A stretch of DNA of 64,000 bases. It comes from a virus. This document shows positions 6,019 to 46,284 of the stretch, piece by piece. Numbering within the stretch: position 1 is the stretch's first letter; each line of letters begins with the position of its first letter. The stretch lies in IMG/VR virus record IMGVR_UViG_3300029787_000018, positions 1-64,000 of that record; one strand, 5' to 3'. The notes beneath the pieces were generated by a model, which saw nothing but the letters and a program-made list of their open reading frames with translations, had not been told where the DNA came from and searched no databases. The position numbers and the translations under genes were made by a program.

Positions 6019-6222
6019 TTAAACAACATTAAACTCCTTTAACACCAAAAACAACTCTTCCTCACTATAAATATTATTCATAAATCGAGTTAACATATTA
6101 CTAGGATTCAAATTATCATAATCCACAAACTCAAACATATTAGACAAATTATCTCGAACCAAAACATGAACGTAGTCAGAACTATACAAATAATCATCAC
6201 TTATAACTACCTCTTTATCCAA
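6019..6222 (-). CDS. Hypothetical protein
   Basis: 67-aa ORF overlapping the upstream ORF. Confidence 0.5.
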   Translation of the reverse strand: MDKEVVISDDYLYSSDYVHVLVRDNLSNMFEFVDYDNLNPSNMLTRFMNNIYSEEELFLVLKEFNVV

Positions 6223-6413
6223 ACCTTAAATTCCTTAGATTCAGACATATTGCCAACAACATTCTCATAAATGAATAACGTTGAATTCATCTCTATCAAA
6301 AGACGTATCTCATCACCAATACCATTAGTAACAATATCACCAACCACAAACCAATTCTCACTAAAACCTATCTCACCATTACCAATATACAATATACTAA
6401 CACGCTTCTCCAT
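6207..6413 (-). CDS. Hypothetical protein (first gene of leftward operon)
   Basis: 68-aa ORF next to the strand-divergence point. Confidence 0.5.
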   Translation of the reverse strand: MEKRVSILYIGNGEIGFSENWFVVGDIVTNGIGDEIRLLIEMNSTLFIYENVVGNMSESKEFKVWIKR

Positions 6414-6591: not shown

Positions 6592-6996
6592 TTGTCTAAT
6601 CCATTAAAACATATACACATGGAAAGTTTACACATTACCGAGAGTAAAAGAGAATTATCAACTACTCAAACTAGAGTTAGTAAGCTCATTGGAGCCATTG
6701 GCTTTGGATCGTTGACTATTGGCGCTGCTTCGCACGCCATGACCCTTACTACAGTAATAGCAGGTAAGACTGCTGCTGTTGGAGCTATCAAGACTGCAAC
6801 TGTTATGACCAGTGCTGGACCTGTTGTTTTATCTGTTGTCAAGGCAGGTATATTCTCAAAGATAGTATCGTTCACCTTTGGTGTAGTCTTGGCAGGTTTG
6901 GCAGGCTATTCGTTGTACTGTTTGGCTGAGGCTTGCTTCGACAAGTGGAATCACCGTGACAAAAAAGTAATCTCTAACGCTATTAAATCTCTATAA
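6592..6996 (+). CDS. Early membrane protein (probable start at ATG 6619)
   Basis: Several hydrophobic G/A/V-rich segments; first rightward gene. Confidence 0.6.
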   Translation: MSNPLKHIHMESLHITESKRELSTTQTRVSKLIGAIGFGSLTIGAASHAMTLTTVIAGKTAAVGAIKTATVMTSAGPVVLSVVKAGIFSKIVSFTFGVVLAGLAGYSLYCLAEACFDKWNHRDKKVISNAIKSL

Positions 6997-6998
6997 TT

Positions 6999-7253
6999 AT
7001 GAACAACGCACCAGATTACGATTACGACGGCATCATAGAGGATGCGCAAGCACAAATGCGTAGGGATGCTTTAGCATACCATCAGGAAATGCAGGCTCAA
7101 TACGAGCGTGAAATGCTTCTTAACGAAATTTCAGAGGACATCGTTGGATGTCCTTTTCATATCATAGATGACATTCTTGATGATGAGGTTGCAGCTCATT
7201 ACATCAAGCTTGTCAATAACACTTACGAACAGTTACTAACTTTTAAATCATAA
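6999..7253 (+). CDS. Early hypothetical protein
   Basis: 84-aa ORF tightly spaced with its neighbours. Confidence 0.6.
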   Translation: MNNAPDYDYDGIIEDAQAQMRRDALAYHQEMQAQYEREMLLNEISEDIVGCPFHIIDDILDDEVAAHYIKLVNNTYEQLLTFKS

Positions 7254-7257
7254 CATC

Positions 7258-7473
7258 ATGTCTACAAGAAAACGTATTCCCGTATCTATCAACATCAAGT
7301 CCGCTGAAGCTATTCACGACTACGAACTCGAACGTCGCATAGAACGCCACCGCAAGGCTCTTGGTCTTGTGGCGGCATCGAAGTCCGAACGTTCCAAGCA
7401 ACGTAAGCACGACGCTAAGTGGCTACAGATCAAGAACGCTGTCAAGAGAGCTGGTCTAAATACTTCTGATTAG
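7258..7473 (+). CDS. Early basic hypothetical protein
   Basis: 71-aa K/R-rich ORF. Confidence 0.55.
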   Translation: MSTRKRIPVSINIKSAEAIHDYELERRIERHRKALGLVAASKSERSKQRKHDAKWLQIKNAVKRAGLNTSD

Positions 7474-30925: not shown

Positions 30926-31390
30926 ATGTTTAGAATTGTAAACACAAAGCGTTCAAATGAAAAAGGTCAAGAATACTTGCTTAGTAGTAAACACATAATT
31001 CCGACTACTTTCTTTAAGTATTTAGACCACCTTATCATTAATGTTATTGAAATGGATCTTAATAATAAAAAGAATATTAAGATTTTTGTAAAACAAGGTG
31101 TATCGGAAGAAGAAGCCGTTAACAGGGTTTCCGATATGATGTTGATATTTATGGATAATCATTACATACAAAATGACCCGATATCAGGACCTTATTTTAT
31201 AGAGAAAGTAAAAGAAGAGGTTTACCCTATGCCCAATGTAAATAGGAAAAAATCAAAATCTGAAATCAAGGAGGAAATAAGTAACCTTGAAACCAGAATG
31301 AACAATGCCGTTAGCAGAGAGAATTACGAAGAAGCTGCTAAGCTTAGAGATCAAATAGAGAAACTTAATGGCAAAGAAACGTCCATATAA
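30926..31390 (+). CDS. UvrB/UvrC (UVR) motif protein
   Basis: LETRMNNAVSRENYEEAAKLRDQI. Confidence 0.75.
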   Translation: MFRIVNTKRSNEKGQEYLLSSKHIIPTTFFKYLDHLIINVIEMDLNNKKNIKIFVKQGVSEEEAVNRVSDMMLIFMDNHYIQNDPISGPYFIEKVKEEVYPMPNVNRKKSKSEIKEEISNLETRMNNAVSRENYEEAAKLRDQIEKLNGKETSI

Positions 31391-31690: not shown

Positions 31691-31724
31691 AAAATGTCCA
31701 GTTTATTAATAAACTGGACATTTT
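31691..31724. terminator. Perfect 34-bp palindrome/terminator at the head of the cassette array
   Basis: AAAATGTCCAGTTTATTAATAAACTGGACATTTT. Confidence 0.8.
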
Positions 31725-31853
31725 TATTTATTTAAACCAATAGATATAACGTACTAGGAAATATGACCTATGTGCGTTTTTCTACATACGTAAAACTTAT
31801 GGCAAATAATAAATATGACGACTTTGATAAAAGTAGGATATTAAGATTGTTTC

Positions 31854-32078
31854 ATGGACTTACAAAAAATGTTTGAAGTGGTCGAAAACACAGACCGTAA
31901 AAGATGGGAATTTACCCCAAATGAAGGCGTGAACGAAACAAGTTACACAGTAGCCTTTTATGAATGTGATAATGAACCTGATGCGTGGATAGCTTTATAT
32001 TTAGCAATATCCAAAAAAAACCAAAAGACAGCAAGTAAGCGAGGTTTAAGCATTTTTTATATGCATTGTTATCAATAG
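31854..32078 (+). CDS. Hypothetical protein reading into the left end of cassette A
   Basis: 74-aa ORF whose stop lies inside GTTATCAATAG. Confidence 0.5.
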   Translation: MDLQKMFEVVENTDRKRWEFTPNEGVNETSYTVAFYECDNEPDAWIALYLAISKKNQKTASKRGLSIFYMHCYQ

Positions 32079-32388
32079 TTAATGATTAATCACAAACCAC
32101 AATAGATATGCCAGATTATAAATTTTTTCCAATGAATGAGCTACCTGAAAAAAGCGTAGACGACCCAAGTTTTAGCAAGACAGTACTTGTCTATGATAAA
32201 ACCGATAATAACCACATATTCGAGAACCTTGGCTACTACGATTTTGAAGATAGTGAATGGACTCATTTTGGTGATGAAAGTATGAATTTAATATGTTGGT
32301 GTTATGTACCTGACCCGAAAAAATTTATAAGCTCGAACGATTTAGAAATTGCCTTACATAGAGGTTACCGACCTTAATTATTGGTAAC
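32068..32388 (+). mobile_element. Cassette A
   Basis: GTTATCAATAGTTAA (32068-32082) / TTAATTATTGGTAAC (32374-32388), 13/15 complementary. Confidence 0.8.
32108..32377 (+). CDS. Cassette A gene, DUF551-like hypothetical protein
   Basis: ELPE...SKTVLVY...LGYYDF...W...ICWCYVP. Confidence 0.65.
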   Translation: MPDYKFFPMNELPEKSVDDPSFSKTVLVYDKTDNNHIFENLGYYDFEDSEWTHFGDESMNLICWCYVPDPKKFISSNDLEIALHRGYRP

Positions 32389-32498
32389 GTTAAAATGTAT
32401 GGTGCGTTTTGCACGAACTTAATTAAATATTAAACAACTTTTGAATTATGGAAAATACAACGCAGAAAATCAACGATAAATGCACTATACATAGTGTT
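32386..32498 (+). repeat. Junction hairpin J1 (attC-like)
   Basis: AAC..ATGTATGGTGCGTTT (32395-32409) / AAATGCACTATACAT (32478-32492)..GTT. Confidence 0.85.
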
Positions 32499-32753
32499 CT
32501 TAATAGTGCCGTTGTTTGGGATACTCTCGAAAACTTTGATGCAAGCACTACACTTGCTCAACACGCTTTTGTAAGTGTTCAAAGAGGTAAATATTATGAA
32601 GATAAGTATGACGGAAACAAGTCTTTATGCGGAAAGATTGGGGCACACGATGGCGACAAATTCATTGCTTTAAAAGACTTTAACCCTGAAGTATTGAACG
32701 AAGAAAAAGCGTGTAAGACCTGCCTTAAAATATATAAAAAAGGTATTATTTAG
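32448..32753 (+). CDS. Cassette B gene, putative Zn-binding protein; start codon lies in the J1 loop
   Basis: H..SLCG...ACKTCLK; N-terminal MENTTQKINDKCTIHS is encoded by the junction. Confidence 0.65.
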   Translation: MENTTQKINDKCTIHSVLNSAVVWDTLENFDASTTLAQHAFVSVQRGKYYEDKYDGNKSLCGKIGAHDGDKFIALKDFNPEVLNEEKACKTCLKIYKKGII

Positions 32754-32756
32754 AAC
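32496..32756 (+). mobile_element. Cassette B
   Basis: GTTCTTAATAGTGCC / GGTATTATTTAGAAC, 12/15 complementary. Confidence 0.8.
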
Positions 32757-32798
32757 GTTGAGTATAAACCCTCGTTTTAATGGGGTTTATACATTGTT
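32754..32798 (+). repeat. Junction hairpin J2 (minimal, 45 bp)
   Basis: AACGTTGA-GTATAAACCC-TCGTTTTAATG-GGGTTTATAC-ATT-GTT. Confidence 0.9.
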
Positions 32799-33284
32799 AC
32801 CCTTAGTACGGGTTTGAAGAAATAAATTAACTTAAAAACAGAAATAAAATGAAAATTGAATTAACAGTAAAAAAGGAATTTGAAGTAAAGACATTATTAG
32901 TTGAAGCCAATGTAAGATATTGGGAAGATGCAACTGTAAATGGTGTTGAAGACGAAAACGGTGATTTAATACCTTGTAAATTAGGCGACACTTGGAAGCC
33001 GATTATTGATTTAGAAACTGGATTAATAACTAATTGGGAAAAAGGAAAGGAAGCGGATATACATTACAAAGTATGTGATGCAGGTGAATATTGGTTGCAA
33101 GATGAAAACGGTGAAAAGATTGTAAAGGCAAAAGGATATTATGTACCTGACTTTTTAGCAATTGACGATAGTGGATTGGGCGACTACATTATTATGAAAG
33201 TTGACAAAGATGGTAAAATCAACAATTGGCGATTTGATAGCGAACCATTTACTAACGAAGACGAAGATTAGTATTAAGGGTAAC
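32796..33284 (+). mobile_element. Cassette C
   Basis: GTTACCCTTAGTAC / GTATTAAGGGTAAC, 13/14 complementary. Confidence 0.85.
32849..33271 (+). CDS. Cassette C gene, phage hypothetical protein
   Basis: VRYWEDATVNG...W.PIIDLETG.I.NW...HYKVCDAG.Y...GYYVP...GDYI. Confidence 0.8.
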   Translation: MKIELTVKKEFEVKTLLVEANVRYWEDATVNGVEDENGDLIPCKLGDTWKPIIDLETGLITNWEKGKEADIHYKVCDAGEYWLQDENGEKIVKAKGYYVPDFLAIDDSGLGDYIIMKVDKDGKINNWRFDSEPFTNEDED

Positions 33285-33468
33285 GATTAATCTATGATTA
33301 GTCGCAGTCTTAAACCTAAACACAATAAATATGGAATATAAAAAAATATTAACCGTTGCCGATTTAAGGGATGTTAACGATTCTTATGAGAAGGGTGAAA
33401 TATTATACTCAAAAATGGTAGAACTTCTAAACAAGCGCATATCTGAGCGATTAATTATAGATGTTGTT
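33282..33468 (+). repeat. Junction hairpin J3 with an ORF in its loop
   Basis: ATCTATGATTAGTCGC (33290-33305) / GCGATTAATTATAGAT (33447-33462). Confidence 0.85.
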
Positions 33469-33495
33469 ACCTACTGTGGCGATTTAATAAACTAA
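33331..33495 (+). CDS. 54-aa ORF starting in the J3 loop and ending in cassette D (not in ORF track)
   Basis: Manual translation MEYKKILTVADLRDVNDSYEKGEILYSKMVELLNKRISERLIIDVVTYCGDLIN*; A-rich leader. Confidence 0.55.
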   Translation: MEYKKILTVADLRDVNDSYEKGEILYSKMVELLNKRISERLIIDVVTYCGDLIN

Positions 33496-33760
33496 AATTT
33501 TGATAAATGACTGAAACTAAAAATACATACGAGCCAAATGGCACAGAAGAAGAAGTAAAACTTGGTATTTTGCATAATGTAAACGGCTACTGGGTAAGCA
33601 ACGAGGGAACTAGACAGCAACCAAACTACCACGTATGGATACCAAGTGTAACGCACTCGGTTTGCGACAGTGCCTATGCAGAAATAGACCTTGCCGTTTG
33701 TAGATGTAATTATTTGGCGAAAAATAAGATTGAGGCACATTACCAGCCATTGTAGGTAAC
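33466..33760 (+). mobile_element. Cassette D
   Basis: GTTACCTACTGTGGC / GCCATTGTAGGTAAC, 13/15 complementary. Confidence 0.85.
33507..33755 (+). CDS. Cassette D gene, hypothetical protein
   Basis: 82-aa ORF; stop lies inside the right-hand repeat. Confidence 0.65.
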   Translation: MTETKNTYEPNGTEEEVKLGILHNVNGYWVSNEGTRQQPNYHVWIPSVTHSVCDSAYAEIDLAVCRCNYLAKNKIEAHYQPL

Positions 33761-33882
33761 GGCAAAGTATAAGATTTCGGTTGCGTTTAGGCGACTGGCT
33801 TAATTAAATGTGCGTTACTCTGATGGTGTAGAAATACCTCACAGACAATGACAAACTAAGCAACTGAATTTTATACATTGTT
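33758..33882 (+). repeat. Junction hairpin J4
   Basis: GTATAAGATTTCGGTTGC (33767-33784) / GCAACTGAATTTTATAC (33860-33876), one extrahelical base. Confidence 0.85.
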
Positions 33883-34668
33883 ACCCACTTTTTAAAAAGC
33901 CGTGCGTGAGGTACGAGGGCAAACACATACAGATTATGAAATACACAGGAAGTAAAAATAGAATTTCAAAATACATATTACCAGTAATGCTTGAAGGTAG
34001 AACCAATGAAACTTGGGTTGAGCCTTTTGTTGGTGGTGCAAATATGATTGATAAAGTTGAAGGAAAAAGAATTGGTTTTGATAATAATGAATATTTAATA
34101 GAGCTATACCATTATTTACAAAATGGAGGTTTAATAGTTAATAGGTTTATAACAAAAGAACAATGGCACAATGTAAAAGAAAATATTGAAAATTACCCAA
34201 AATGGTATGTTGGTTTAGTAGGCGTTTTAGGTTCTTATAATGGTAATTGGTTTAGTGCTTATGGTGGTGGAAGTAAAACTAAAGAAGGTAATTATAGAAA
34301 CTACTTTGATGAAGGTATAAGAGGATTATTAAAACAAGATTTATCTAATATTCAATTTGTATTTTCTGATTATAAAAATATTAAAATACCAAATAATAGT
34401 ATTATTTATTGCGACCCGCCATACCAACTAAAAAACAAAAGATATAAAGAGCATTTTGATAGTGAAGTGTTTTTTGATTGGTTTAGAAATAAAGCAAAAG
34501 AAGGACATAAAGTTTTTGTTTCTGAATATAATGCACCAAAGGATTTTAAATGTATTTGGCAAAAAGAAATAAGTAAAACTAACCCAAAGCAAAAAGTAAA
34601 CAAAATAGAAAAATTATTTACGATTGAGTAAGCCGTAAAGATTGGCGGCTTTTTACATTGTGGGTAAC
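33880..34668 (+). mobile_element. Cassette E
   Basis: GTTACCCACTTTTTAAAAAGCCG / CGGCTTTTTACATTGTGGGTAAC, 20/23 complementary. Confidence 0.85.
33936..34631 (+). CDS. Cassette E gene, D12-class (Dam-like) N6-adenine DNA methyltransferase
   Basis: MKY.GSK, VEPFVGGAN, IYCDPPY, VFVSEY; start moved to ATG 33936. Confidence 0.9.
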   Translation: MKYTGSKNRISKYILPVMLEGRTNETWVEPFVGGANMIDKVEGKRIGFDNNEYLIELYHYLQNGGLIVNRFITKEQWHNVKENIENYPKWYVGLVGVLGSYNGNWFSAYGGGSKTKEGNYRNYFDEGIRGLLKQDLSNIQFVFSDYKNIKIPNNSIIYCDPPYQLKNKRYKEHFDSEVFFDWFRNKAKEGHKVFVSEYNAPKDFKCIWQKEISKTNPKQKVNKIEKLFTIE

Positions 34669-34718
34669 AATTCGCTATGAGTACTACAGCATCACATAAC
34701 TAACTAAAAATCAATAGT

Positions 34719-34931
34719 ATGCGTGTAAATGTAAAATTTGAAGCGGTATGGCAAATAAAGGGTAATACAGACTATAAAGTTACTAAACGCAAAATGGTAA
34801 TTAATTCTAAAACAGAAAAACTATTAACCTATAACAGAAGAGGTTATTTTATAATGGGTAAATATTTAAAGAAAAAAGATTTAAACCATTATTTAGAAAA
34901 GATACCTGAAGAAAATAATTTGCCATTTTAA
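34719..34931 (+). CDS. Small basic beta-rich protein at the distal end of the array
   Basis: 70 aa; WQIK...YKVT....INSKT.KLL...RGYFI.GKY, loosely NUMOD4-like. Confidence 0.65.
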   Translation: MRVNVKFEAVWQIKGNTDYKVTKRKMVINSKTEKLLTYNRRGYFIMGKYLKKKDLNHYLEKIPEENNLPF

Positions 34932-34938
34932 TAAATAA

Positions 34939-35012
34939 ACCAACTGACAAATAATCTTTGACAGTTGGTGTAATTAAGTATTTCAACTACTCGAAAATAT
35001 AGAGTAGTTCTT
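34939..35012. terminator. Two hairpins at the convergence of the rightward and leftward blocks
   Basis: ACCAACTG..CAGTTGGT and AACTACTC..GAGTAGTT. Confidence 0.55.
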
Positions 35013-35013
35013 T

Positions 35014-38000
35014 TTAAAAAATAGACTCTACCATTGATTTAGTTGTTCTTACTGCAGAAGGTATAAGCTTGTATTCGATCTTATCCAAATCCATGTAGTA
35101 ATTGGCATCCCAATAAGCACTCTCTGCAAACCTATTATCGGTGCTCAATGCAAATCCCCCAATAAGTCCTGACATTGCCAGACCTTTTAGCCCACTATCA
35201 AGTCGTTTGGCTAGCTCAGGACTTTCTTTTTGAAGCTTTTTACGATATTCTATATAATCTTTCGGATTCATGCTTTGAACCTCTGAAACCGTCTTAAAAA
35301 GCATTCTTAGCGAACCGATATGTTCGTTACCATAAATATCTATATCCTGTTTCGCGAATCTATCGTTTACAACAGTAGGTAAGAATCTTGAAAACTGCAA
35401 CATCATTCTACCTAAGCTATATTGCTGAATCAATCTTTGATCAGTAGCTTGATACCCTTTCCCTTGTGATTTCTTCACCTCGTTCTCCAACATGATCAAC
35501 CTTTGTTGATCAATAGGCTCTTCCATAGGTTTATACTCCCCGTTCTCGTCAAACTTGTTCCATTCGGCTTCGGTAAGCATACCCGCCATCTGAACACCTT
35601 GAATCCATTTCTCGCTCCACGTCATTGGCATAAGTGCCAAATCGCCCAAGAAATTATCAAGTCTCCCTTTTGAGGACATAGATACGTTATCGTATACATT
35701 GATATCCATAAAGTTCAACGTCTTTAGAATCTTCTGTGTTCTTTTCATTCGTTTTACAATATCAAATGGATTGGTCGTACTGGTATCCATACCCCAAAAA
35801 CGGCTTTCTCCTTTTGCCCATTCTTTTACAGAACCGTTTTTAATGTTATGGTACTTACCAGAGGCTACGTTACCCATGAAATAACTAGCGTTAAAACCTA
35901 ACTGCCAAAATAGGTTCATCTTAGTCAATAGGTCTACAACCTTATCTCCTTTTTCACCTAATAGGTTTTGTCGCTTGCCTTTTAAGTAGTAATCTTTCCA
36001 GTTCATTTTTACGTACTTACCGGCATTCTTTAAACCTTTGTCCTGGTTCAATGCAAGGACACCATCTACAACAGCTTGCATGCTCTTGAATCCTGCAAAG
36101 TTTTCATTACCGTTAACGAACAACGTAGAATGAACATAGCTGTTAAGCGCATGGTTTAAATCCATAGAAGGCATTTCGGTAGCTTTATTACTACGTGTAT
36201 TGGCAAATCGGTTCATAATACCGAAAGACAATGCAGAATCCATTTCAAAATCGGAAACTTCAATATCCGAACCGTCTTCATTTTTGCCGCTTTTTAAGAG
36301 CTTCTTAGCCTTGTTCTTTAAAAGAATGTAGTCTTTAATCTGCTTGGCATTATTCTTAGTGCTGGCCGACATAGCAGAGTATATGTTATCGATATCCTTA
36401 AAGCTAACAAGCTCTTTTTTGCCAGTGTCCGGATTATCGATATATAGCATTACTTCGTTTAAGGCGTCATCGCTATTTTTCGTAGATTGGAGCAACCCGA
36501 GAAGTCCTCTATTTGAAAAAGATTCAAATGTGCCCATAGAGGTGTGAGGTATATAGCCTCTCCTGACTCTTTTACCGTCTGAGGTAGAAGAAGGGGCAAG
36601 TTCTCCGGTAATGTCAGTGAAAGTTTTGTAGAAGTTGTATTCGGCTTCGGATAATCTGCCTTGCTCTTTAAGTTTGTTGATTTCTTCATTGCTTTTTAGT
36701 TTGAATTCTTTAATGACCTTACCCTCGGAAACAATCTCGTTCTCTTCTACAAGATTACCGTAAAGTATGTTGTAAAGGTCTTTTCTGTTGTGAATATAAC
36801 TATAATAGAAACGTTTTAAAATATCTATAGGGTTACCGCTATCGAACATGAAACCGAACTTCTCTTTGTAAAGTGCGTTCGTAGTTTCGTTGATCCTGGT
36901 AACGTATTTTTTCTTTTCGTTCTGAAACTGTTTCTCCATAGCTGTCATATTCCTTACCATACCTTGTATCTCTGGATGATTGGAAGGAATATTGTTAGCC
37001 ATTAACCAAGTTTGTACAGGACCAAGGTCTTCATTGGTTTTTGTACGTCCTGTCAACTTTGTTTGTTGAGCGGATATCTTTGCCGCCAACGCCTTTACTA
37101 TAGGTGTGGTAATATTGGCATACGCATAGGCATTTTTGGAACCGTACGTTCTATATAGTTCCATAAGCTTTTCGGGGCTGAACTGATTAAAGTCCTTACC
37201 CCTGAAGCTTTTGTTATATATTTCGTTGGCTCTCTTTTTTTCCTTTACGTATTCCTGATAAGCCTGGTTCTTGGATTCCTCTGTTTGAAACTTGTTGAAC
37301 TCCATGGCATCGTTGAACGTCTGCTTGTCCATAAAGTCCTGTGACTTGTAATCCCAGAACTCTTCACGAGCTTCCATGCCTATCGGCTCAGCTTTTTTTT
37401 TAACACGTGGAACAGGATTGTTGGAACTAGAAGTAATGGTAACTAAATCTATATCCAATTGGTTGTTCGTGCGTCTAGGAACTTTTTTTATCATTTTTGT
37501 AGCGTTCTTGGCTAAATGATTAAGTCTGTTCAACGTGTTTGAAATAGGCTTGTTGAATACTTCGGACTTGTTTCCTATAAACTTGTAAAGGTTCATATTG
37601 CCCTTGGCATCCCTTGACTTGAAGTAGAACTGTGTATTGTTCTCCAACGCTGCTCTGAACTGTGGGTTCTTTTGCATTTCTATCATAGCCTTTTCAGGTG
37701 ATAGCCCTTTAATGTCAAAGAAAGGAATATTGTTACGTACACCATTGATATCTTTAAGCATCAATATTTCTTCCAATTCCCTAAGCTCTGGACGCGTATA
37801 GGTTTTATCGTTTTTCTCCTTGAAATCTTGGTTAAGGTTCTCTACCAACATTTTGTTCGTGAACGAGTCGGTAATAGGCAACATGGACAAAGGACTTCCC
37901 CAACCGTTTTTGGTAAGGTCATAATAAACAAGTTTATATTGCAAGTCTGCAGGAAGTTCCGAAAACTCTTTGTTCATTCTACGTACCTCTTGGGTAGTAA

Positions 38001-41000
38001 GGCTTTCATCAAAGAAACTACTGTTCATAGAAATATAAGGCTTGTTTCCATCGAACTTCATATTAAGCCCTTGCGTAAGCAATAGATTGTTTTCAAGATT
38101 GCCTTCCATCTTAAGCCCGGCTATATATTCCGATAAATCTGCAAATACGCTGTTTTCATTTTTAGGATCAACTATTTCGGCCAACTCTTCTTTGGACATA
38201 TTGTTATATCCCGAAATATTGGAATGTAGGAACTTTGAAATACTTCTGGTATACTTCTTAATCTGGTTGTCGTTCAACAGTTCCATGCCTTGCTTAACGG
38301 CCAAGCCTTGTAGCAACTTGGTAATAGCGGGTCTATAAACCAAATCTATTTGTTTGGTATGTTCCAATGTAGCTTCTGCAGTATTCAAATACCTTTTTAA
38401 ATCTGGATTACTAGCCATTTCTGCAGGTATGTTCATCGTAGAATCCTCATTGTTCATAATACGCTTGAACTCTCCTATCTGCTTTTCCAACAAATATGGG
38501 TTGGTTTCAATACCGTTATGACCAGCCATAATCTTACTGACCTTTTGAATGTCGGCATTGACTTCATCCATTTTCATTATTAGGTTAATAATGTTGGACT
38601 GGTTTTTCTGGCTATAGAACTCTTTGTTATTGGTATTGGTAACTACGCCACCTGTAGAATTGGAATCATATTTTACGGTACCGTTATTACCATTGGAAAC
38701 AGACCTTTTAGCTAATTCTGTCAACATTTGCTTTCTAGGGGTGTAACCGTGGAACGCAGAATTGTTTTCGTTCATTATCGAAACATATTCTTTTACCATT
38801 GGAGCGTTCATCATAACGGCTACATCTTCAATAGGAATGTTGAGGTTGACCATTAAGGTAAAAGCCGATACCGTATGTTCGTTTATATTCAATGCATCCG
38901 CTGCATTTTCGTTAAGGTTGTCCAGAATAAGGTTGGCTACCAATGCAGATTTATGGTTACGGCTTTGATCACCTTCTCCCATATCCTCGAATATCTGGTA
39001 ATTGGTATTGTTTACCATTATACCTTCTTTCATATTGGCTCTGTACGCGGCAAGCGTATTGGCAATTCTATGCAAGTTGAAAACGGTACCGATATTCCTT
39101 TTGGCGATCATGGAATCCTCATAGGACTTTCTTCTGTACGATGGAGAAAATGCCAATGGCTGTTCTTTTACATAGTTAGGGAACTGCTCTTTGATATGTT
39201 CCTTTAACTTTTTACCTTCTCCGGAAGTGTCCATTGCCGTTTGAATGAACGGTGCCATTTTTTCACTAAGCCATAGCTTTTCCATACGGTCTATGACTTC
39301 GTTCATTTTTTTGTTTTTTCCTTTATGTTGGATGAACAAGGCATCACCATCTAAATCCGCACCTATTGTCTTACTGAAAGAAGTAGGTACCTGTACTTGG
39401 TTTCCTTTACCAACGGCAAACTCAACAGCTTCGAATATACCTGTAAAGTTTGGTCCGTTTGAAGGAACACGAGTGGCTATTACCGTTTCCCCAGGAACAT
39501 AATAACCGATTACCTTACCGTCTTTAAGAACGGTCTGTGTTTCAAGTTTTGGCGTTGTTTTATCCCTATTTTTATTAAGGTGTGCTACAAACTTGTCCGC
39601 AGCTTCTTTTAAACGCATAAGGTCGTTTTCTTGCGGTGTTTTGGTCTTGTCAAGATAACCGTTCGTATCAGTGGCTTTGATAGCCATTTCGCCTAATTTA
39701 CTATCAGGTGTATAGTATTTTCTGGCTCTTACCTTTCCATTTAAATGTTGGGGCAATACAATCTCCGCCCTATTAAGTCCTGTAGAAGCTTGCGTATAAC
39801 CGTTAAGCTCATTACTTCCTTTTATTTCTCCATCAACAGGCAATTCCCATCCATAACTAGACTTCTGGTGCGCATACGTACCAGCTATTCTTAACTTGTT
39901 ACCTTTTGACTTTAAAGTGTTCGCTAATTGATTGGAAACGATCTCTATTGCTCTAGGGTGTAGTATACCATATTTTTCGATAACGAACCTTTGGACTTGA
40001 TCCATGTCCTCTTTGTTCATTTCCTTGGTAACTATTTTATTATATGTAGCAACATCTTTCTTTTTAAGTTCATTGGTAACCTCGTTAAGGTTTTCGGACA
40101 TCATATCCGATATCAGTTCTTGTATCGCTTCGGCTTCTTCAAGATGCCCAAGATTTAAAGAATGAACTAATAGCGAGTTCATTTGCTGTACAGGTAACGT
40201 TACTTCATCGGTAACTTTATCCATTACTTGTTGTGGTCCAAAGTTGTAACCACTGATACCCATAAAACCACCTTTGGAATCATACATGATGTTGTCTTGG
40301 AACTCACCCGCTTTGGTAACTCCCTCTTCGTTCATAAGCTCGTTTAAGTATGGTGCATTCTCCATACCCTTGCCTTTTTGAATTCCCGTTTTCTCAGAAG
40401 AAAAAGGAATTGCTATCGGAAAGTAGTTCTCTAGACCATCGGTAAAGTTATCACTAGGCATTGCACCATTGTTCTTTTTAGCGTATGCATCGAACATTTT
40501 AGCACGTCTGGCTTTCATATGTTCGTATAATCCTTTGAACTTGTAGTTCTGATCAACAAAATCTTGGTCGATTATAGTAGTATATCCTTTAAGCAATACG
40601 GTGTTACCTCTAAAGTTCGGGTTGTCTTTTTCTACAGAGTAGTTAAGGAACTTGAAACCTTCATTCAAATCAAATACACCTTTACCAACATTAGCCCAGC
40701 GCTCAGCATCTTCTCTAAGTATGAACATACCACCATCGGTAGAAGCTTCATTATCTTTAGGGTCTTTAAAGAATATAGGCTCAAACTTTAAGTTCTTGTT
40801 TACGGATATAACAGGACTACCGGCATTCTTTAAACGCTTGGCAATACTTGATATCTTAATGTTAGGAGATACTACCTCAGCCATGAACAGACCGTTCATA
40901 ATTTGATTGTATACATATCCTTTTACAATTTTTTCTCCTTTAGGATTAAGCTTTCCGTTTTTATCGAACATAGATTTTAAAGAATCTATCTTCATAAGTT

Positions 41001-44000
41001 CCTTGCCGTTTTTATTAAAGAAATCAACTTCTTTTTCTCCTTCTTTAATCAACGATAAGTTAAACTGACGTTTACTTATATTTTCCTCAGATATATTTCT
41101 GTAAATATTATAAGCCGCAGTAGTAGTATCGTTGGACATATCAAGCCTTTTAGTAGGCATGTAATACTTTCTAGGACTATCACCGAAAACACCGACGTTC
41201 GCCAAATATGTTTTTTTGTTAAGTCCGGAAGCGTACATCATAAAGTCCTCAAAGGACTGTTCGTATGAAGTACTGTCCTCAAATGCATTGGCATTGTTGC
41301 TTACGCTATCATCGATACCGGTATAGTAAACAAGGTCTGGTTTGTTTCCAGCTACTACACTATCATAGAAATTGTCCAAAAATTGATTAGGAACGGGTTT
41401 GCTGTACGCTTTTGAACGAGTGATATGAGAATACCTTTTTATAAAATCGGCTTTAGGAATCACGTCACCGTCCTTATTAGGGCGTAATGAATCGTACATC
41501 TGGTCAAGCTCTTTGGTCATGTGGTTGTTCATCATACGAACAGGAACCATATTTCCTTTGGCATTCTCTACAACACTATCTTGGGTAAACTCCCTATTAG
41601 TAGCCATAATAGCATTGGCAATAGGTCTAAAGTTATAAGGGTACATATACCTGTTACCGTTCTTGGCGGGTTTACCTAAATGCTTGTCGTTATCGATAAA
41701 GCTTTTAAGAACTGTTACAGGGCTATAGTAAGTACCTTTTACGTTGATAAAACCATTTTCCAATATATCCATCATTTTTACGTCAGGAGGTGCCATAAAT
41801 CGATATGCCTTTACGTAATCTTCATTAGTAGCAGTATCGTCTTTTATTCTAGCTACGATACCCTCGAACTCCGACCATTGATCACCTAATAAATGACCGC
41901 TCTTTTTAAGCATGTAATCTCTGGCTTTAGCCATATTGTCCATCATGTCTTGTGCTTGGCTCTGCTCTCTTTTAGATAAAGATTCTTCAATAGAGTGGTT
42001 TATTTTGCCATCGTTCTCCGACATAACGGACTTAACGGCATTTACCATTCTATAGTTGGAGAACAGCGTCCATGTAGAATTCAAAAGAACGGTTTTGGCT
42101 TCCGGTGCACGTAGTTCCAAAAATTTGTTGAATGCTTGGATATCCGCATGAGGACTGTTTTCAAGTGCGTCTATAAAATCAACGGAGTTGTTTGTATTGG
42201 CAGCCAATTGGAACATCTTGTACCTAAACTCTTTCTTATCGAATAAAGGACCTTGCTTGCCCCATATGCTTTTTCTAAGCCTAATGGCACGATTGTACTC
42301 TTTTACAAAGTTGTTGATTATTTTGGTAGCCTTAGCTGTTCTGGTCATAAAGCTTTTTTCCGCTATACTGATAACGTTATCGGCATCCTCTTGGTTGTCC
42401 GCAACCTCATCTAGTATCTGGTCTAAAGCATCCTCTTTTCTAGTGAACAAGTTCTTGTTCTCTTCCGGGTCAAAATTGGCAACTTCTTCTTCAAGCCTGC
42501 TCTTGACCTTTACCCTACGTTGCATGATGTTTGCATCGTAAGCTGTGGAGCGAGATTCAAAACCTATTTCGGTAGCTTCTATTCTAGGTACTTCTTTAAG
42601 GAACTCCATAACGATGTAATCCCTCATATTATCAATTGAAAGATCTTGGCCGTCGTTAAGCTTTTGAATAAGCTCTTGGCTTTCCTGTAAGTAAGTAGGT
42701 TCAGATTTAGCCTTGGTATCTATCATCTTCCACCACTTACGGGTAGTATTGGTTCTTTTAGCTTCTGTACTAAGACCAAAGAAATTATTGTACTTTTTAG
42801 AAAGAGGACCTTGCATAGTAGCTACAAAGGCTTCTTCCAGAATGTATTTCTGCTCGGCCAAAGGTAAAATAGATGCTCCGTACTCAACTAGGTCTTCCTC
42901 GGTAGGTTTACCTGAGAACGTTCCTACTTCTTTACTTTCACCAACACCAAAATTATATAGAACATAATCTGGATATCTTTCAGCTATTTCATTTACAAGC
43001 TTTTTGTTTGCCATGACCTGTTCCAGGACCGCTTTGGTTTCTGGTCTGTCCTTTGCGAATCTGTAGAAGATGTGTGTCATTTCGTGCATGAACACTTCGC
43101 CTTGGTTCCATTCATCGCTACGAACGAATACTGCTGCAGAAACAGCAAGTCCGGTACCTCGTATACCCAACGCTTTTACAAGGTCGTCAAGTATGTATGC
43201 ATTTACCCTACTATCAGCTTTAGGGAACATAAAGTTCAAACGCTGATTAATGGCAACCATTTTATCAAGGTCGCTAGGACTGTTACGTATACGTCCTATA
43301 ATAGGAGCTTCGGCTCTGTTCTCTTCAAGAGGTTCGTTGTTCTCCTCAAAGGTTACGAACTCGTCGGCTTCATTTTGTTCAGATAACTCTGAATTTGATT
43401 CAGCTAATTCATCGCCTCTTGATTCCATAAAAGGACCAACTCCTTTTTTATAAGCATCTATAGCACTACTAAGTTTCTTTTTGATCTTAGTAGCCTGGCT
43501 TTTGATTTGCTTCTTTGTTTTGTTAACCTGCTTTGGCTCGGCTTGCTTGTTAACAAAGTTCTGGAACTGCTTGGATTTATCCTTGGCGGTTTCTTTTACC
43601 TTGTCAAAAGTATCGTTGAATTTGTCTACTATTTCCTGCTCTTTGGGAGTCAACGATTTTTGACCTTTTATTTTAGCTACGATATCATCGTACGTCTTTT
43701 TTGCTAAACCTTTAGGTAATGCTTTATTAGCTTTAGCCTTAGCTTTTTCTGCTAGTTCTGAAATACGTTTCTTAACCTCTTTGGCACGTTGCTCTCTTTT
43801 AGAAGCATCTTCCTTAGATTCTTTTTTCTTGGGCTTACTAAGTGTTTCGGACTCTTCTTCCAAATCACTAAGCTCATTTAATTCATCCTCTGTAATATCA
43901 TCTGAAACCTCACCCGTTACATCATCTGATTCTACACTATCGTTTTCCCCATTTTCTTCTCCCTGAACGTCTCCGGCAGTAGCACCATCGATTTCATTAT

Positions 44001-46284
44001 CGCCATCTGTTCCTTGTCCAGTAGGTGACGTAGGTGGTACACCTTCGCCATCTTCTCGTTGGGATTCAGTTTCTTCGGTGGTTGCAACTTCCTCGGTGGT
44101 TTCTGATTCTTCTGATACATCATCTTTGTTTTTATTAAATAGATTGTCGAAAAGGCTTTTAGCTTTATTTCCTAGTTCCGATATTTTGCCAATGGCTTTC
44201 TTGCCTATATTGGCACCGTCGTACTCCGCATTATCTTTAAGGACTTCTGCTTGGTTGTTCTTTTTAAGAATATCCTCGTTCGATTTTTGTACAAAGTATT
44301 TGTAGTCGGCTTTGGCAAGTCCCGTAGCTATAATATCCTGACCTCTTTCGTTTTTAACCTGTATAGGTTCTACAACGTTCTCAACAGCCTTACCTAGAAT
44401 AAGGTTGGCTTTGTTCGCTTGCGCTTGGGCTATACCATAAGTAAGACCCTGAATCGTTTTATCTGTTTCAGCAGTACGCTCATTGATTTCCGATTCTATT
44501 TGTTGTTCTGTAAGATTACTATTTACTAATATTTCAATAACATTTTCAAGTTTTGATTTTTCTACCTCAACCTGTTCTTGAAAGAACATTTCGGCACTAT
44601 GGTTCAAGAACAACGCATGCTTACCTCTAATGTTAAGCTGTTCGGCTTGGTTATCGAGTACCATGTAATCATCGATATCTTCTTGCATTTTTTGAGCTTC
44701 TTCCTCAGTAATAATACCTTCTTTGATAAGGTTCTGTGAATAGCTCTCGAACATTTCCGTTTTGTCCTGTAGCACCATATCCGATATGGTTTCACGCATA
44801 TGGAACTTCTGCATTTCATTGCCTTTTTCATCGGCACTATCAAAAATAGTTTTAAGGTTCTCCGTTCGGTTGTATAATTGTCTTGAACGCTCGGCATCCT
44901 TATTGATGCCCGATACTATACCAGATACACCGCCACCAAGGGCACCTAATGCAAATGCAATGGTTTTCGTTCCTTCGTTCTCTTCACTGTTATAGAACTC
45001 CATGAAACTACCGTATTCTGGTTCTGTACCCATTACGTCGCTTTCAGCCATCATAGCCGCCCAGCTTTCATAAGTCTCTTGGAAAGTTTCTTCGTAACCT
45101 TCCTGTAAAGCTTTACCCGATGCACTTACCAATTTTCTTAAAGTAGGTGAAGTCTTTGCCGTAAAAGCCTTGGATATATTTTTAAAATTCTTGCTTGAAT
45201 CAAAAGCCTGTTTACCTTTCTTGATAAGATTGGACTGCTTTAATATCTTTCCGGCATTACCGTAGGTCATACCCCATGAAAGAATATCAACAGCCATATA
45301 CTTTAGGTTGTTACTAAATGTTTTCGCTGCAATATCGGATAGTTCATCATTGGTAAACAAAGGGTTTCCGTTTTCGTCGGTAAGTTCTTTTCTTGAATTG
45401 TATGCTTCTGCAGAATTCAATAGACCGGAGATAACGTTACTTGCCATACCACCTGCAATATTCTCAACAGCGGCTCCTGCAGTATTGGTAAGTTTCCCTA
45501 AATCGGTAACAGCTTTTCCTATACCTTTTCCCGTACCAGCAACTTCCATTACTTCGTCAGCTCCACTAGCAAGTTTCTTGGAACCGTTTTTAAGTGTTCC
45601 CTTGGCATTTTTGATAAGACCTTTTTTAAGGGCTTTTCCAGCTAATGCATTACTACCTCTTTTTGCCAATGCTCCCGCACCTTTAGAAAGGAATATAAAC
45701 TCTGCTAATTGTGGAATATACTCGGCACCATGTTTAGACCAGAATTGAGGGTCGGCCAAGGTTTTGATAGAGAACTCGGGGTTTTTAAGTTCCTCTGGCA
45801 TGTACACTTGGTTGTTCTCTGAAATGCCTTCTCCTTTTTCCTGTAGGAATCTTGAAATTACGTTACCGTCGAACATATCTATACCCGGAACGGCAGAACC
45901 TACTACTTGTGCTACGTCGCCAAATCCACCGATAACGTGATCACCTATACCACGCATAAAGGAAACTCCCGCTTCGGTAACCCAATCCCTACCACTTACA
46001 TCGGCACCAACGGAATTTTCTCCCGCTTCTGGTTCGTACTGTTGCTTTGCACCTAACGGGTCGTTCTTGGATTGAACGGCACTACCTATAGACGCTTGTC
46101 TTTCTTGGGCGTTTGGAAATACGGCTTTCGGCTGTTCAGGTTCTTTAGCAGTTGGTTGTTTCGGATCGGTATTCTCTTGACCTTTCTCGGTTTGGTAATC
46201 AGGGTTGTTCTCTTCCGCTTGGGTACCCTCTTCTTCAACTCCTTGCTTTTGTAAGGAGCTGATGTAATTTTTAAAATTTGGCAT
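35014..46284 (-). CDS. Giant virion-packaged RNA polymerase polyprotein (crAss-like), with zincin-like HExxH motif
   Basis: 3756 aa; IATRVPSNG and GADLDGDALF (DxDGD two-barrel RNAP catalytic loop, about 39340); HEMTH (about 43080); cargo-like N-terminus; position after the muzzle and ejection genes. Confidence 0.85.
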   Translation of the reverse strand: MPNFKNYISSLQKQGVEEEGTQAEENNPDYQTEKGQENTDPKQPTAKEPEQPKAVFPNAQERQASIGSAVQSKNDPLGAKQQYEPEAGENSVGADVSGRDWVTEAGVSFMRGIGDHVIGGFGDVAQVVGSAVPGIDMFDGNVISRFLQEKGEGISENNQVYMPEELKNPEFSIKTLADPQFWSKHGAEYIPQLAEFIFLSKGAGALAKRGSNALAGKALKKGLIKNAKGTLKNGSKKLASGADEVMEVAGTGKGIGKAVTDLGKLTNTAGAAVENIAGGMASNVISGLLNSAEAYNSRKELTDENGNPLFTNDELSDIAAKTFSNNLKYMAVDILSWGMTYGNAGKILKQSNLIKKGKQAFDSSKNFKNISKAFTAKTSPTLRKLVSASGKALQEGYEETFQETYESWAAMMAESDVMGTEPEYGSFMEFYNSEENEGTKTIAFALGALGGGVSGIVSGINKDAERSRQLYNRTENLKTIFDSADEKGNEMQKFHMRETISDMVLQDKTEMFESYSQNLIKEGIITEEEAQKMQEDIDDYMVLDNQAEQLNIRGKHALFLNHSAEMFFQEQVEVEKSKLENVIEILVNSNLTEQQIESEINERTAETDKTIQGLTYGIAQAQANKANLILGKAVENVVEPIQVKNERGQDIIATGLAKADYKYFVQKSNEDILKKNNQAEVLKDNAEYDGANIGKKAIGKISELGNKAKSLFDNLFNKNKDDVSEESETTEEVATTEETESQREDGEGVPPTSPTGQGTDGDNEIDGATAGDVQGEENGENDSVESDDVTGEVSDDITEDELNELSDLEEESETLSKPKKKESKEDASKREQRAKEVKKRISELAEKAKAKANKALPKGLAKKTYDDIVAKIKGQKSLTPKEQEIVDKFNDTFDKVKETAKDKSKQFQNFVNKQAEPKQVNKTKKQIKSQATKIKKKLSSAIDAYKKGVGPFMESRGDELAESNSELSEQNEADEFVTFEENNEPLEENRAEAPIIGRIRNSPSDLDKMVAINQRLNFMFPKADSRVNAYILDDLVKALGIRGTGLAVSAAVFVRSDEWNQGEVFMHEMTHIFYRFAKDRPETKAVLEQVMANKKLVNEIAERYPDYVLYNFGVGESKEVGTFSGKPTEEDLVEYGASILPLAEQKYILEEAFVATMQGPLSKKYNNFFGLSTEAKRTNTTRKWWKMIDTKAKSEPTYLQESQELIQKLNDGQDLSIDNMRDYIVMEFLKEVPRIEATEIGFESRSTAYDANIMQRRVKVKSRLEEEVANFDPEENKNLFTRKEDALDQILDEVADNQEDADNVISIAEKSFMTRTAKATKIINNFVKEYNRAIRLRKSIWGKQGPLFDKKEFRYKMFQLAANTNNSVDFIDALENSPHADIQAFNKFLELRAPEAKTVLLNSTWTLFSNYRMVNAVKSVMSENDGKINHSIEESLSKREQSQAQDMMDNMAKARDYMLKKSGHLLGDQWSEFEGIVARIKDDTATNEDYVKAYRFMAPPDVKMMDILENGFINVKGTYYSPVTVLKSFIDNDKHLGKPAKNGNRYMYPYNFRPIANAIMATNREFTQDSVVENAKGNMVPVRMMNNHMTKELDQMYDSLRPNKDGDVIPKADFIKRYSHITRSKAYSKPVPNQFLDNFYDSVVAGNKPDLVYYTGIDDSVSNNANAFEDSTSYEQSFEDFMMYASGLNKKTYLANVGVFGDSPRKYYMPTKRLDMSNDTTTAAYNIYRNISEENISKRQFNLSLIKEGEKEVDFFNKNGKELMKIDSLKSMFDKNGKLNPKGEKIVKGYVYNQIMNGLFMAEVVSPNIKISSIAKRLKNAGSPVISVNKNLKFEPIFFKDPKDNEASTDGGMFILREDAERWANVGKGVFDLNEGFKFLNYSVEKDNPNFRGNTVLLKGYTTIIDQDFVDQNYKFKGLYEHMKARRAKMFDAYAKKNNGAMPSDNFTDGLENYFPIAIPFSSEKTGIQKGKGMENAPYLNELMNEEGVTKAGEFQDNIMYDSKGGFMGISGYNFGPQQVMDKVTDEVTLPVQQMNSLLVHSLNLGHLEEAEAIQELISDMMSENLNEVTNELKKKDVATYNKIVTKEMNKEDMDQVQRFVIEKYGILHPRAIEIVSNQLANTLKSKGNKLRIAGTYAHQKSSYGWELPVDGEIKGSNELNGYTQASTGLNRAEIVLPQHLNGKVRARKYYTPDSKLGEMAIKATDTNGYLDKTKTPQENDLMRLKEAADKFVAHLNKNRDKTTPKLETQTVLKDGKVIGYYVPGETVIATRVPSNGPNFTGIFEAVEFAVGKGNQVQVPTSFSKTIGADLDGDALFIQHKGKNKKMNEVIDRMEKLWLSEKMAPFIQTAMDTSGEGKKLKEHIKEQFPNYVKEQPLAFSPSYRRKSYEDSMIAKRNIGTVFNLHRIANTLAAYRANMKEGIMVNNTNYQIFEDMGEGDQSRNHKSALVANLILDNLNENAADALNINEHTVSAFTLMVNLNIPIEDVAVMMNAPMVKEYVSIMNENNSAFHGYTPRKQMLTELAKRSVSNGNNGTVKYDSNSTGGVVTNTNNKEFYSQKNQSNIINLIMKMDEVNADIQKVSKIMAGHNGIETNPYLLEKQIGEFKRIMNNEDSTMNIPAEMASNPDLKRYLNTAEATLEHTKQIDLVYRPAITKLLQGLAVKQGMELLNDNQIKKYTRSISKFLHSNISGYNNMSKEELAEIVDPKNENSVFADLSEYIAGLKMEGNLENNLLLTQGLNMKFDGNKPYISMNSSFFDESLTTQEVRRMNKEFSELPADLQYKLVYYDLTKNGWGSPLSMLPITDSFTNKMLVENLNQDFKEKNDKTYTRPELRELEEILMLKDINGVRNNIPFFDIKGLSPEKAMIEMQKNPQFRAALENNTQFYFKSRDAKGNMNLYKFIGNKSEVFNKPISNTLNRLNHLAKNATKMIKKVPRRTNNQLDIDLVTITSSSNNPVPRVKKKAEPIGMEAREEFWDYKSQDFMDKQTFNDAMEFNKFQTEESKNQAYQEYVKEKKRANEIYNKSFRGKDFNQFSPEKLMELYRTYGSKNAYAYANITTPIVKALAAKISAQQTKLTGRTKTNEDLGPVQTWLMANNIPSNHPEIQGMVRNMTAMEKQFQNEKKKYVTRINETTNALYKEKFGFMFDSGNPIDILKRFYYSYIHNRKDLYNILYGNLVEENEIVSEGKVIKEFKLKSNEEINKLKEQGRLSEAEYNFYKTFTDITGELAPSSTSDGKRVRRGYIPHTSMGTFESFSNRGLLGLLQSTKNSDDALNEVMLYIDNPDTGKKELVSFKDIDNIYSAMSASTKNNAKQIKDYILLKNKAKKLLKSGKNEDGSDIEVSDFEMDSALSFGIMNRFANTRSNKATEMPSMDLNHALNSYVHSTLFVNGNENFAGFKSMQAVVDGVLALNQDKGLKNAGKYVKMNWKDYYLKGKRQNLLGEKGDKVVDLLTKMNLFWQLGFNASYFMGNVASGKYHNIKNGSVKEWAKGESRFWGMDTSTTNPFDIVKRMKRTQKILKTLNFMDINVYDNVSMSSKGRLDNFLGDLALMPMTWSEKWIQGVQMAGMLTEAEWNKFDENGEYKPMEEPIDQQRLIMLENEVKKSQGKGYQATDQRLIQQYSLGRMMLQFSRFLPTVVNDRFAKQDIDIYGNEHIGSLRMLFKTVSEVQSMNPKDYIEYRKKLQKESPELAKRLDSGLKGLAMSGLIGGFALSTDNRFAESAYWDANYYMDLDKIEYKLIPSAVRTTKSMVESIF

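Follow-up and report, generated by a model that had tools for sequence, protein, structure and literature searches.

Bacteroidetes are considered to be nearly devoid of integrons, which phages, too, are thought to carry only rarely, and surveys with IntegronFinder have found this phylum to be essentially without integrons (PMC9024848). Besides, a cluster of attC sites without an integrase has been reported in Polaribacter phage P12002L, one of which, attC2, recombined with attI1 under IntI1, on the bottom strand only (Qi et al. 2023; PMC9892861). We analyzed a 64,000-nucleotide stretch of viral DNA (positions 1 to 64,000 of IMG/VR record IMGVR_UViG_3300029787_000018; hereafter, the window), in which a preliminary description had noticed, at 31745-34700, an integron-like array of five gene cassettes in a crAss-like phage. 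The label of the carrier fits, since its 1552-residue virion protein matched crAss-like phages only, at 22 to 27% identity. The array, about 3 kb of a marine crAss-like phage, is real, and it is an orphan set of cassettes that belongs to an integron-like system. As to its working, we consider it probable that the junctions between cassettes are attC-like, that the two ends of each cassette pair with each other, and that a short Xer/IntI-like recombinase acts on them in trans.

All five inverted pairs (A to E) that open with GTT and close with AAC are present in the window, on the plus strand, as are all other array features below. In cassette A, the left arm GTTATCAATAGTTAA (32068-32082) is complementary to the right arm TTAATTATTGGTAAC (32374-32388) at 13 of 15 positions, and both mismatches are G.T. 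The left arm of cassette B (32496-32510) pairs at 12 of 15 positions with the right arm GGTATTATTTAGAAC (32742-32756), and in cassette C GTTACCCTTAGTAC (32796-32809) pairs with GTATTAAGGGTAAC (33271-33284) at 13 of 14, the mismatch being G.T. Cassette D carries GTTACCTACTGTGGC (33466-33480) and GCCATTGTAGGTAAC (33746-33760), with 13 of 15 complementary positions, and the arms of cassette E, (ATT)GTTACCCACTTTTTAAAAAGCCG at 33877-33902 and CGGCTTTTTACATTGTGGGTAAC(AAT) at 34646-34671, span 26 nt with 88% complementarity; between its left arm and the ATG at 33936 lies a conserved leader. As had been noticed, four of the five genes have their stop codon within the right arm or in contact with it. 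The claim that each gene is bracketed by its own pair stands as far as the five pairs go, but the left arm of cassette B lies inside gene gB and that of cassette D inside gene gX.

We scanned positions 31701 to 34750 for GTT...AAC pairs 150 to 900 nt apart, with 300 dinucleotide-preserving shuffles as a control. A to E were the only pairs with at least 12 of 15 complementary positions, against a shuffle mean of 0.9 (P about 0.007), and three pairs had at least 13 of 15, against a shuffle mean of 0.05 (0 of 300 shuffles). The five pairs thus exceed chance. GGTAAC/GTTACC was clustered in the array region, in alternating orientation. It had further been claimed that the bases next to GTT are matched at the other end of their own cassette. 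This was supported in the wider family of sites described below, in which the triplet after GTT covaries with the triplet before AAC (ACC/GGT, GTA/TAC, GTG/CAC, AGC/GCT, and ATG/CAT). When right sites were chosen by motif alone, own arms paired at 9 or more of 13 positions in 33% of viral cases versus 2.2% of permuted pairs, and in 38% of bacterial cases versus 0.4%. In both viral and bacterial loci, the best complement of a true left arm (an AAC-ending 16-mer within 3 kb) nearly always directly preceded the next junction. The mismatches between arms were G.T (12 to 22) and also T.T, with 0 to 1 A.C; this preference for G.T with almost no A.C, together with the changes in the stems (see below), indicates that one particular strand has been selected to fold.

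Inverted ends on every unit, with GTT at the start and AAC at the finish, would also be expected if the cassettes were small transposons with terminal inverted repeats, or could be put down to accident. The shuffle and permuted-pair tests exclude chance. For transposons, it is unfavorable that the ends differ between units and covary within a unit, that target-site duplications are lacking (a unit is flanked by ATT at one end and by G at the other), and that no transposase turned up among the proteins examined. This reading is scarcely credible.

Between the cassettes lie hairpins. J2 (32754-32798) is a canonical compact hairpin of the form AACGTTGA-GTATAAACCC-loop-GGGGTTTATAC-ATT-GTT (fold z -3.0). 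J1 (32386-32498), J3 (33282-33468), and J4 (33758-33882) are long-loop junctions, with loops of 75 to 155 nt and inner stems of 9 to 10 bp that have a G.T at the same position. The stems are formed by TGTATGGTGC (32396-32405) and GCACTATACA (32482-32491) in J1 (10 bp, one G.T), by ATCTATGAT (33290-33298) and ATTATAGAT (33454-33462) in J3 (9 bp, one G.T), and by GTATAAGATT (33767-33776) and AATTTTATAC (33867-33876) in J4. The frame first proposed, AAC-N-TAT...ATA-N-GTT with a longer 5' spacer, is true of J1 to J4. The plus strand of J4 folds at -13.4 kcal/mol versus -8.2 for its complement, and another metagenome holds a compact J4 from which 77 nt of the loop are missing (joint 33783->33861). 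J1, J3, and J4 folded no better than their shuffles, and the end-to-end stem of J3 was not recovered in its minimum-energy fold. The array-terminal junction (34669-34718) starts with AAC-AAT and is without the GTATA hairpin; this type also occurs at P12002L (attC2 of Qi et al.), Cellulophaga phage phi18:3, and locus L118. Exact matches to ATTGTTACC at 51621 and 57621 were treated as chance because they lie in structural genes and have no hairpin.

Junctions of the GTATA type form a family that extends across phages and Bacteroidota. An exact-pattern scan of IMG/VR contigs gave about 30 true junctions, BLAST found junctions in five cultured Flavobacteriia phages (Polaribacter P12002L and P12002S and Cellulophaga phi12:1, phi12:3, and phi18:3), and the exact-pattern scan, applied to prokaryote genomes, detected them among Saprospiraceae, Crocinitomicaceae, Flavobacteriaceae, Chitinophagaceae, Balneolaceae, and others. 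The scans used a tight pattern, since most matches to a looser one (GGTAAC..ACATTGTTACC) were chance occurrences in coding regions. Read along the phage gene strand, the consensus is right arm-AAC-G-N4-GTATA(T/A)G-stem-loop-stem-(T)TATAC-ATT-GTT-left arm, in which the AAC, GTT, and GTATA/TATAC boxes are invariant or nearly so and the spacers measure 5 and 3 nt. Among 38 aligned junctions, stem pairs changed in a compensatory manner (UA 20/AU 17 at one pair, AU 17/GC 8/CG 5 at another, and GC 13/UA 10/AU 10/CG 3 at a third), and one stem pair was G.U in 23 of the 38. A covariance model built from this alignment found J2 with 54.8 bits (E 2e-13), and its other hits in the window were noise (E above 2). 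That the sites, like attC, conserve structure over sequence was thus borne out. Some junctions are situated at the ends of contigs or spread over many small ones (L197, L214, L271 [Spongiimicrobium salis]; the Crocinitomicaceae genome G029, with 37 model hits), which suggests long arrays at which short-read assemblies break.

Phage cargo genes adjoining junctions lie on the folding strand (29 same, 0 opposite), whereas bacterial genes adjoining junctions lie opposite to it (27 opposite, 1 same). In bacteria, the hairpin type is tied to the gene on its GTT side, so that an open reading frame (ORF) is followed by its site, as in integrons, and the longer spacer follows AAC on the non-coding strand. 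Integron bottom strands have this same polarity. A shared function in mRNA is made less likely by the reversal between phages and bacteria. If the pairing acted in RNA, with the 5' and 3' ends of a cistron forming a processing or stabilizing stem and the intergenic hairpins serving as processing sites, then the phage data would be in accord: it is the sense strand that folds (29 to 0), the mismatches are G.U compatible, and the arms lie in untranslated ends, with stop codons in the right arm. The same strand is, however, antisense in bacterial arrays (27 to 1), the left arm of cassette B lies inside a coding region, an Rfam search of six loci gave no family match, and the sites associate with a DNA recombinase. 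We therefore regard an RNA-level function as very improbable.

Under the integron-like reading, each junction is an attC-like site of which the written (gene) strand folds: the right arm and AAC are followed by a 5-nt spacer (G-N4), the GTATA stem, a variable loop, TATAC, a 3-nt spacer (ATT), and GTT with the left arm. A cassette would be excised as a circle by recombination at the conserved AAC/GTT triplets, and in this circle its own right and left arms would pair and complete the outer stem. Such pairing in the circle would explain why the bases after GTT match the cassette's own far end and not its neighbor. The cargo consists of phage accessory genes, namely, one Dam methylase and several small ORFs of unknown function. 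Should the array be active at present, it may serve to acquire and shuffle genes of this phage, as the preliminary description proposed.

The enzyme would most likely be a tyrosine recombinase of about 270 residues, Xer/IntI-like and without the integron-specific insert, of a kind that adjoins arrays in Bacteroidota chromosomes and a few phages; a host or a co-infecting phage may supply it to this phage in trans. In one viral record, a 267-residue recombinase is encoded 1.5 kb downstream of a junction on the same strand, and in a Saprospiraceae genome (L184) a 273-residue homologue lies 0.3 kb from the last cassette, in which GTTACCTGC...GCAGGTAAC bracket a GmrSD gene. Both proteins scored 172 to 206 bits with the integron integrase model TIGR02249, below its cutoff of 265, and matched it in two stretches that skip model positions about 194 to 255, the part of the integron-specific insert. 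Among solved structures, they come closest to VchIntIA (2a3v; E 5e-40), which was likewise aligned in two stretches. Homologues at 39 to 55% identity, distinct from weaker XerC/D-like hits, were present in all five junction-bearing bacterial genomes tested. Site-model hits lay 1.5 to 4 kb from close homologues in four genomes (in a 5.5-Mb genome, two of its four hits), and none lay near seven XerC/D-like control loci. The short recombinase family has thousands of members of about 275 residues, which different pipelines have named XerD, tyrosine recombinase, or "tyrosine recombinase/integron integrase."

Several observations were made around recombinase genes. At the downstream end of the phi18:3 array, gp037 (L164, 8236-9522) encodes a 428-residue tyrosine recombinase; it matched XerD weakly and was rejected as a member of the short family, and it may simply be the integrase of that phage. 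In L184, the last cassette is separated from the recombinase gene by a stretch with a GTATAAACACAAGTATAC element, and a GC-rich repeat of 60 to 70 nt (AACTAGGGGCTTGTCCCCGACTCTGTTCGAGTCGATCCGACCG.AGGGAGGATGGACT) precedes both a junction and this element (4980-5042 and 6950-7021); the repeat may be part of a docking site. On the reverse strand of phage locus L145, a module of about 130 bp with two palindromes (GGGTAGTCAGATATG...CATATCTGACTACCC and AAATGAATGTCACAGACATTCATTT) is found at about 6160-6290, 6700-6840, and 7280-7415, inserted between the right arm and the junction of at least three consecutive cassettes beside the short recombinase of that phage.

Cassettes of the window recur in other genomes with their borders at the sites. 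A viral contig of 109 kb (L128) carries cassette D at about 85% identity between GTTACC and GGTAACGG; the arms are the same, and the flanks are unrelated on both sides. Cassette E has 80% nucleotide identity to gp54 of P12002L, an unrelated siphovirus, with which it shares the gene, the leader, and both arms, and compensatory differences are seen. In P12002L itself, the methylase gene and its neighbor, a Mom-like gene, are each flanked by such arms and joined by such a hairpin. Besides, contigs of four other marine metagenomes matched the window in blocks (31854-32390, 32787-33285, 33281-33776, 33768-33875, and 34666-34975), the borders of which coincide with cassette borders; this comparison used assembled contigs and resolves breakpoints to within the conserved boxes. 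The expectations that homologues of the cassette genes would carry such ends and that breakpoints would fall at GTT/AAC were thus upheld, the former by cassettes D and E and the latter by the homology of D to L128, which runs exactly from GTT to AAC, and by the metagenome blocks. In addition, an unrelated ORF in locus L155 has the arms and 5' leader of cassette C on its flanks, and different ORFs follow the arm and leader of cassette E in other metagenomes.

Several points weigh against the integron-like reading. No tyrosine recombinase was found by a PF00589 search of the 77-kb genome of this phage, which makes the array an orphan, and only 2 of 26 junction-bearing viral records have one. None of the ten 7-bp cores in the window (R'', TGGTAAC, TTAGAAC, GGGTAAC, AGGTAAC, and GGGTAAC; R', GTTATCA, GTTCTTA, GTTACCC, GTTACCT, and GTTACCC) fits the consensus RYYYAAC/GTTRRRY, a departure that had already been noted. 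The covariance model of compact junctions scored only J2 among the four window junctions, and no close relatives were found with two anchor proteins for a comparison of gain and loss. The polarity of the cargo is reversed between phages and bacteria (29:0 versus 1:27). In phages, the hairpin core of a junction is linked to neither neighboring cassette, which a single-crossover integron model does not predict, and identical arms with leaders flank unrelated ORFs. The same model is poorly fitted by the starts of gB in the loop of J1 and of gX in the loop of J3, and by the loop motifs TGACGATAGGAA, GAGGYACGAA, and CGTTTTAAT, which recur in junctions and leaders; TGACGATAGGAA and GAGG(T/C/A)ACGA(A/G) occur in junction loops and in small hairpins of cassette leaders (window 33903-33925; L001 2538-2556). 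As for P12002L, attC2 is an array-terminal site and not a GTATA-type junction, attC1 is a junction-like hairpin 7 kb away for which no verified junction was obtained, and these are the only two attC calls in that phage, neither being a GTATA-type junction that flanks the Dam gene (Qi et al., PMC9892861). The unlinked cores, the identical ends around unrelated ORFs, the starts of gB and gX in loops, and the recurring loop motifs keep two other explanations alive, one of exchange driven by homology and one of duplex half-sites.

According to the first, the junctions are conserved regulatory hairpins, that is, terminator or leader modules, and cassettes are exchanged by ordinary homologous or microhomology recombination through phage recombinases, with no dedicated enzyme. 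The model for this is the promoter-early stem-loop (PeSL) regulatory cassettes of T4-type phages, reportedly described by Arbiol et al. in 2010. PeSLs are direct repeats that act through homology and carry a promoter. As with PeSLs, short conserved stem-loops flank small accessory ORFs in plastic phage regions and coincide with ORF swaps; moreover, the hairpin core, the arms with the leader, and the ORF assort independently, as if any shared stretch served as a crossover, most carrier phages have no tyrosine recombinase, and leaders are conserved up to the ATG, suggesting a role in expression. Unlike PeSLs, however, the ends are inverted and cassette specific, and the site is also found in host chromosomes, beside a recombinase and with the opposite gene orientation. 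Bacterial sites flank genes of the opposite strand and so cannot be one kind of transcript signal. Sigma-70-type promoter-like sites were no commoner than in shuffles, in a scan that does not cover Bacteroidota promoters. The Bacteroidota promoter consensus is TTTG...TAnnTTTG, and no convincing fit to it was seen by eye in junctions and leaders. None of the terminator-like sites detected was a junction hairpin, a folded single strand is indicated by the compensatory changes and by the strong G.T bias on one strand, and in bacteria the sites associate with a dedicated IntI-like recombinase. On balance, regulatory hairpins exchanged through homology are an unlikely account of the array.

The second explanation takes the half-junctions (AAC-spacer-GTATA and TATAC-spacer-GTT) as separate double-stranded sites for a Xer-type enzyme, so that any intervening segment, gene or loop, could be exchanged. 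The pdif sites of Acinetobacter plasmids are duplex sites of 28 bp with 6-bp centers and need no hairpin, and the arrangement is similar in that inverted recombinase sites, alternating in orientation, delimit the genes and the enzyme is of Xer type. Indeed, the recombinase lacks the IntI insert that reads extrahelical bases, and hairpin loops behave as independent modules, even holding gX and the start of gB. Complementarity nonetheless extends far beyond a binding site, with arms of 14 to 26 nt and covarying inner stems, and this extended pairing and covariation set the locus apart from pdif. A duplex site would have no need of mismatches biased to G.T on one strand. Besides, the spacers are 3 and 5 nt, whereas Xer sites have central regions of 6 to 8 bp. 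Duplex half-sites are accordingly judged improbable.

Compared with integrons and with attC clusters that have no integrase (CALIN), as described in 2023 (Front Microbiol 14:1091391), the locus shares tandem single-gene cassettes and sites that are imperfect palindromes, in which outer AAC/GTT boxes and inner boxes are combined with spacers of unequal length and a loop that varies. Furthermore, the start of a cassette pairs with its own end, one strand is favored for folding, and bacterial arrays have the ORF before the site and adjoin an IntI-related tyrosine recombinase. The cargo consists of accessory genes, and the same cassette occurs in different contexts with borders at core sites. The integron logic ascribed to the array in the preliminary description is thus supported by own-end pairing, structured sites, recurring cassettes, and the presence of the same sites beside a recombinase in Bacteroidota. 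The differences are the end complementarity of 14 to 26 nt versus 7 in integrons, a recombinase of about 270 residues without the IntI-specific insert, the lack of an IntI integrase in this phage's genome, by which it is no complete integron, phage cargo that is inverted relative to the site, and a hairpin core linked to no cassette. The primer sequences place attC2 at the array-terminal site that follows the Mom-like cassette of P12002L, and the terminal junction of the window has the same ATTGTGGGTAAC-AA start and is loosely similar beyond it.

The system had been called possibly undescribed. This does not stand for the cluster of attC sites in P12002L, which has been published (Qi et al. 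2023), but it does for the short enzyme, the details of the sites, and the phage polarity, which we did not find described; nor did we find a paper that treats the short recombinase together with these sites. The principle is a known one that has been partly reported for a single phage, and the enzyme, site details, and phage polarity represent a variant of it. A broader proposal, on which we are evenly divided, is that a separate integron analogue operates in Bacteroidota and their phages, with an insertless Xer/IntI-like recombinase of about 270 residues and hairpins with long, cassette-specific outer stems, to which standard tools are largely blind. Phages would then hold an "inverted" cassette pool, with the site and leader upstream of the ORF, through which unrelated phages (crAss-like phages, siphoviruses, and Pachyviridae) trade antidefense and accessory genes. 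If the site family and the short recombinase work as proposed, a major phylum and many viruses would possess a gene-capture platform of their own that current surveys miss, and unrelated phages would have a concrete way of exchanging methylases and further counterdefense genes. This would also bear on how attC-type hairpins are recognized, as the enzyme is without the domain that reads extrahelical bases in classical integrases.

The array block is bounded by a terminator-like hairpin (31691-31724, a perfect 17+17 followed by a T-run), which closes the upstream operon, and by a convergent gene of 3756 codons. A probable first junction, J0 (31748-31850; AAC-G-TACT...TATG..TGCGTTT), resembles the start of J1 and a P12002L junction, a weak likeness seen by eye; its GTT at 31848 lies 6 nt upstream of the start of matches to the other-metagenome contigs. 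The first ORF, g0 (31854-32078, 74 residues), has its stop codon inside the left arm of cassette A and travels together with gA (32108-32377, 89 residues) in other metagenomes (block 31854-32390). These two, gB (32448-32753, 101 residues), and gC (32849-33271, 140 residues) belong to no known family. From its start in the loop of J1, gB reads through the site, an arrangement also seen for gp034 of phi18:3. The 54-residue gX (33331-33495) starts in the loop of J3 and ends 27 nt beyond that junction. Cassette D carries gD (33507-33755, 82 residues), which belongs to phrog_20712 (function unknown), and cassette E carries gE (33936-34631), a D12-class N6-adenine DNA methyltransferase (Dam-like).

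Following the array-terminal junction, gF (34719-34931, 70 residues) is weakly similar (25 to 34%) to a small post-array ORF in phi18:3 and P12002L. Such an ORF after the terminal site is thus weakly conserved in three unrelated phages (window 34719-34931; L164 7981-8217; L001 4192-4440). A Pfam search with it gave no match; on visual inspection, the pattern K.G...Y.V...G.I.N.KT...L..N..GY is reminiscent of NUMOD4, a motif of homing endonucleases.

Among the neighboring genes, the convergent 3756-codon ORF (35014-46284, minus strand) had no PHROG match, and two other large proteins (649 and 771 residues) likewise had no family match. Just upstream of the array, a 154-residue protein (30926-31390, plus strand) contains a UvrB/UvrC motif (PF02151). 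A GroEL-type chaperonin of 560 residues is encoded at 1594-3276 on the minus strand (phrog_5725, E 1e-100). Finally, an 840-residue protein (16341-18863, plus strand) matches the middle of very large phage proteins (phrog_10691, E 1e-221) and has helicase- and methyltransferase-like parts.

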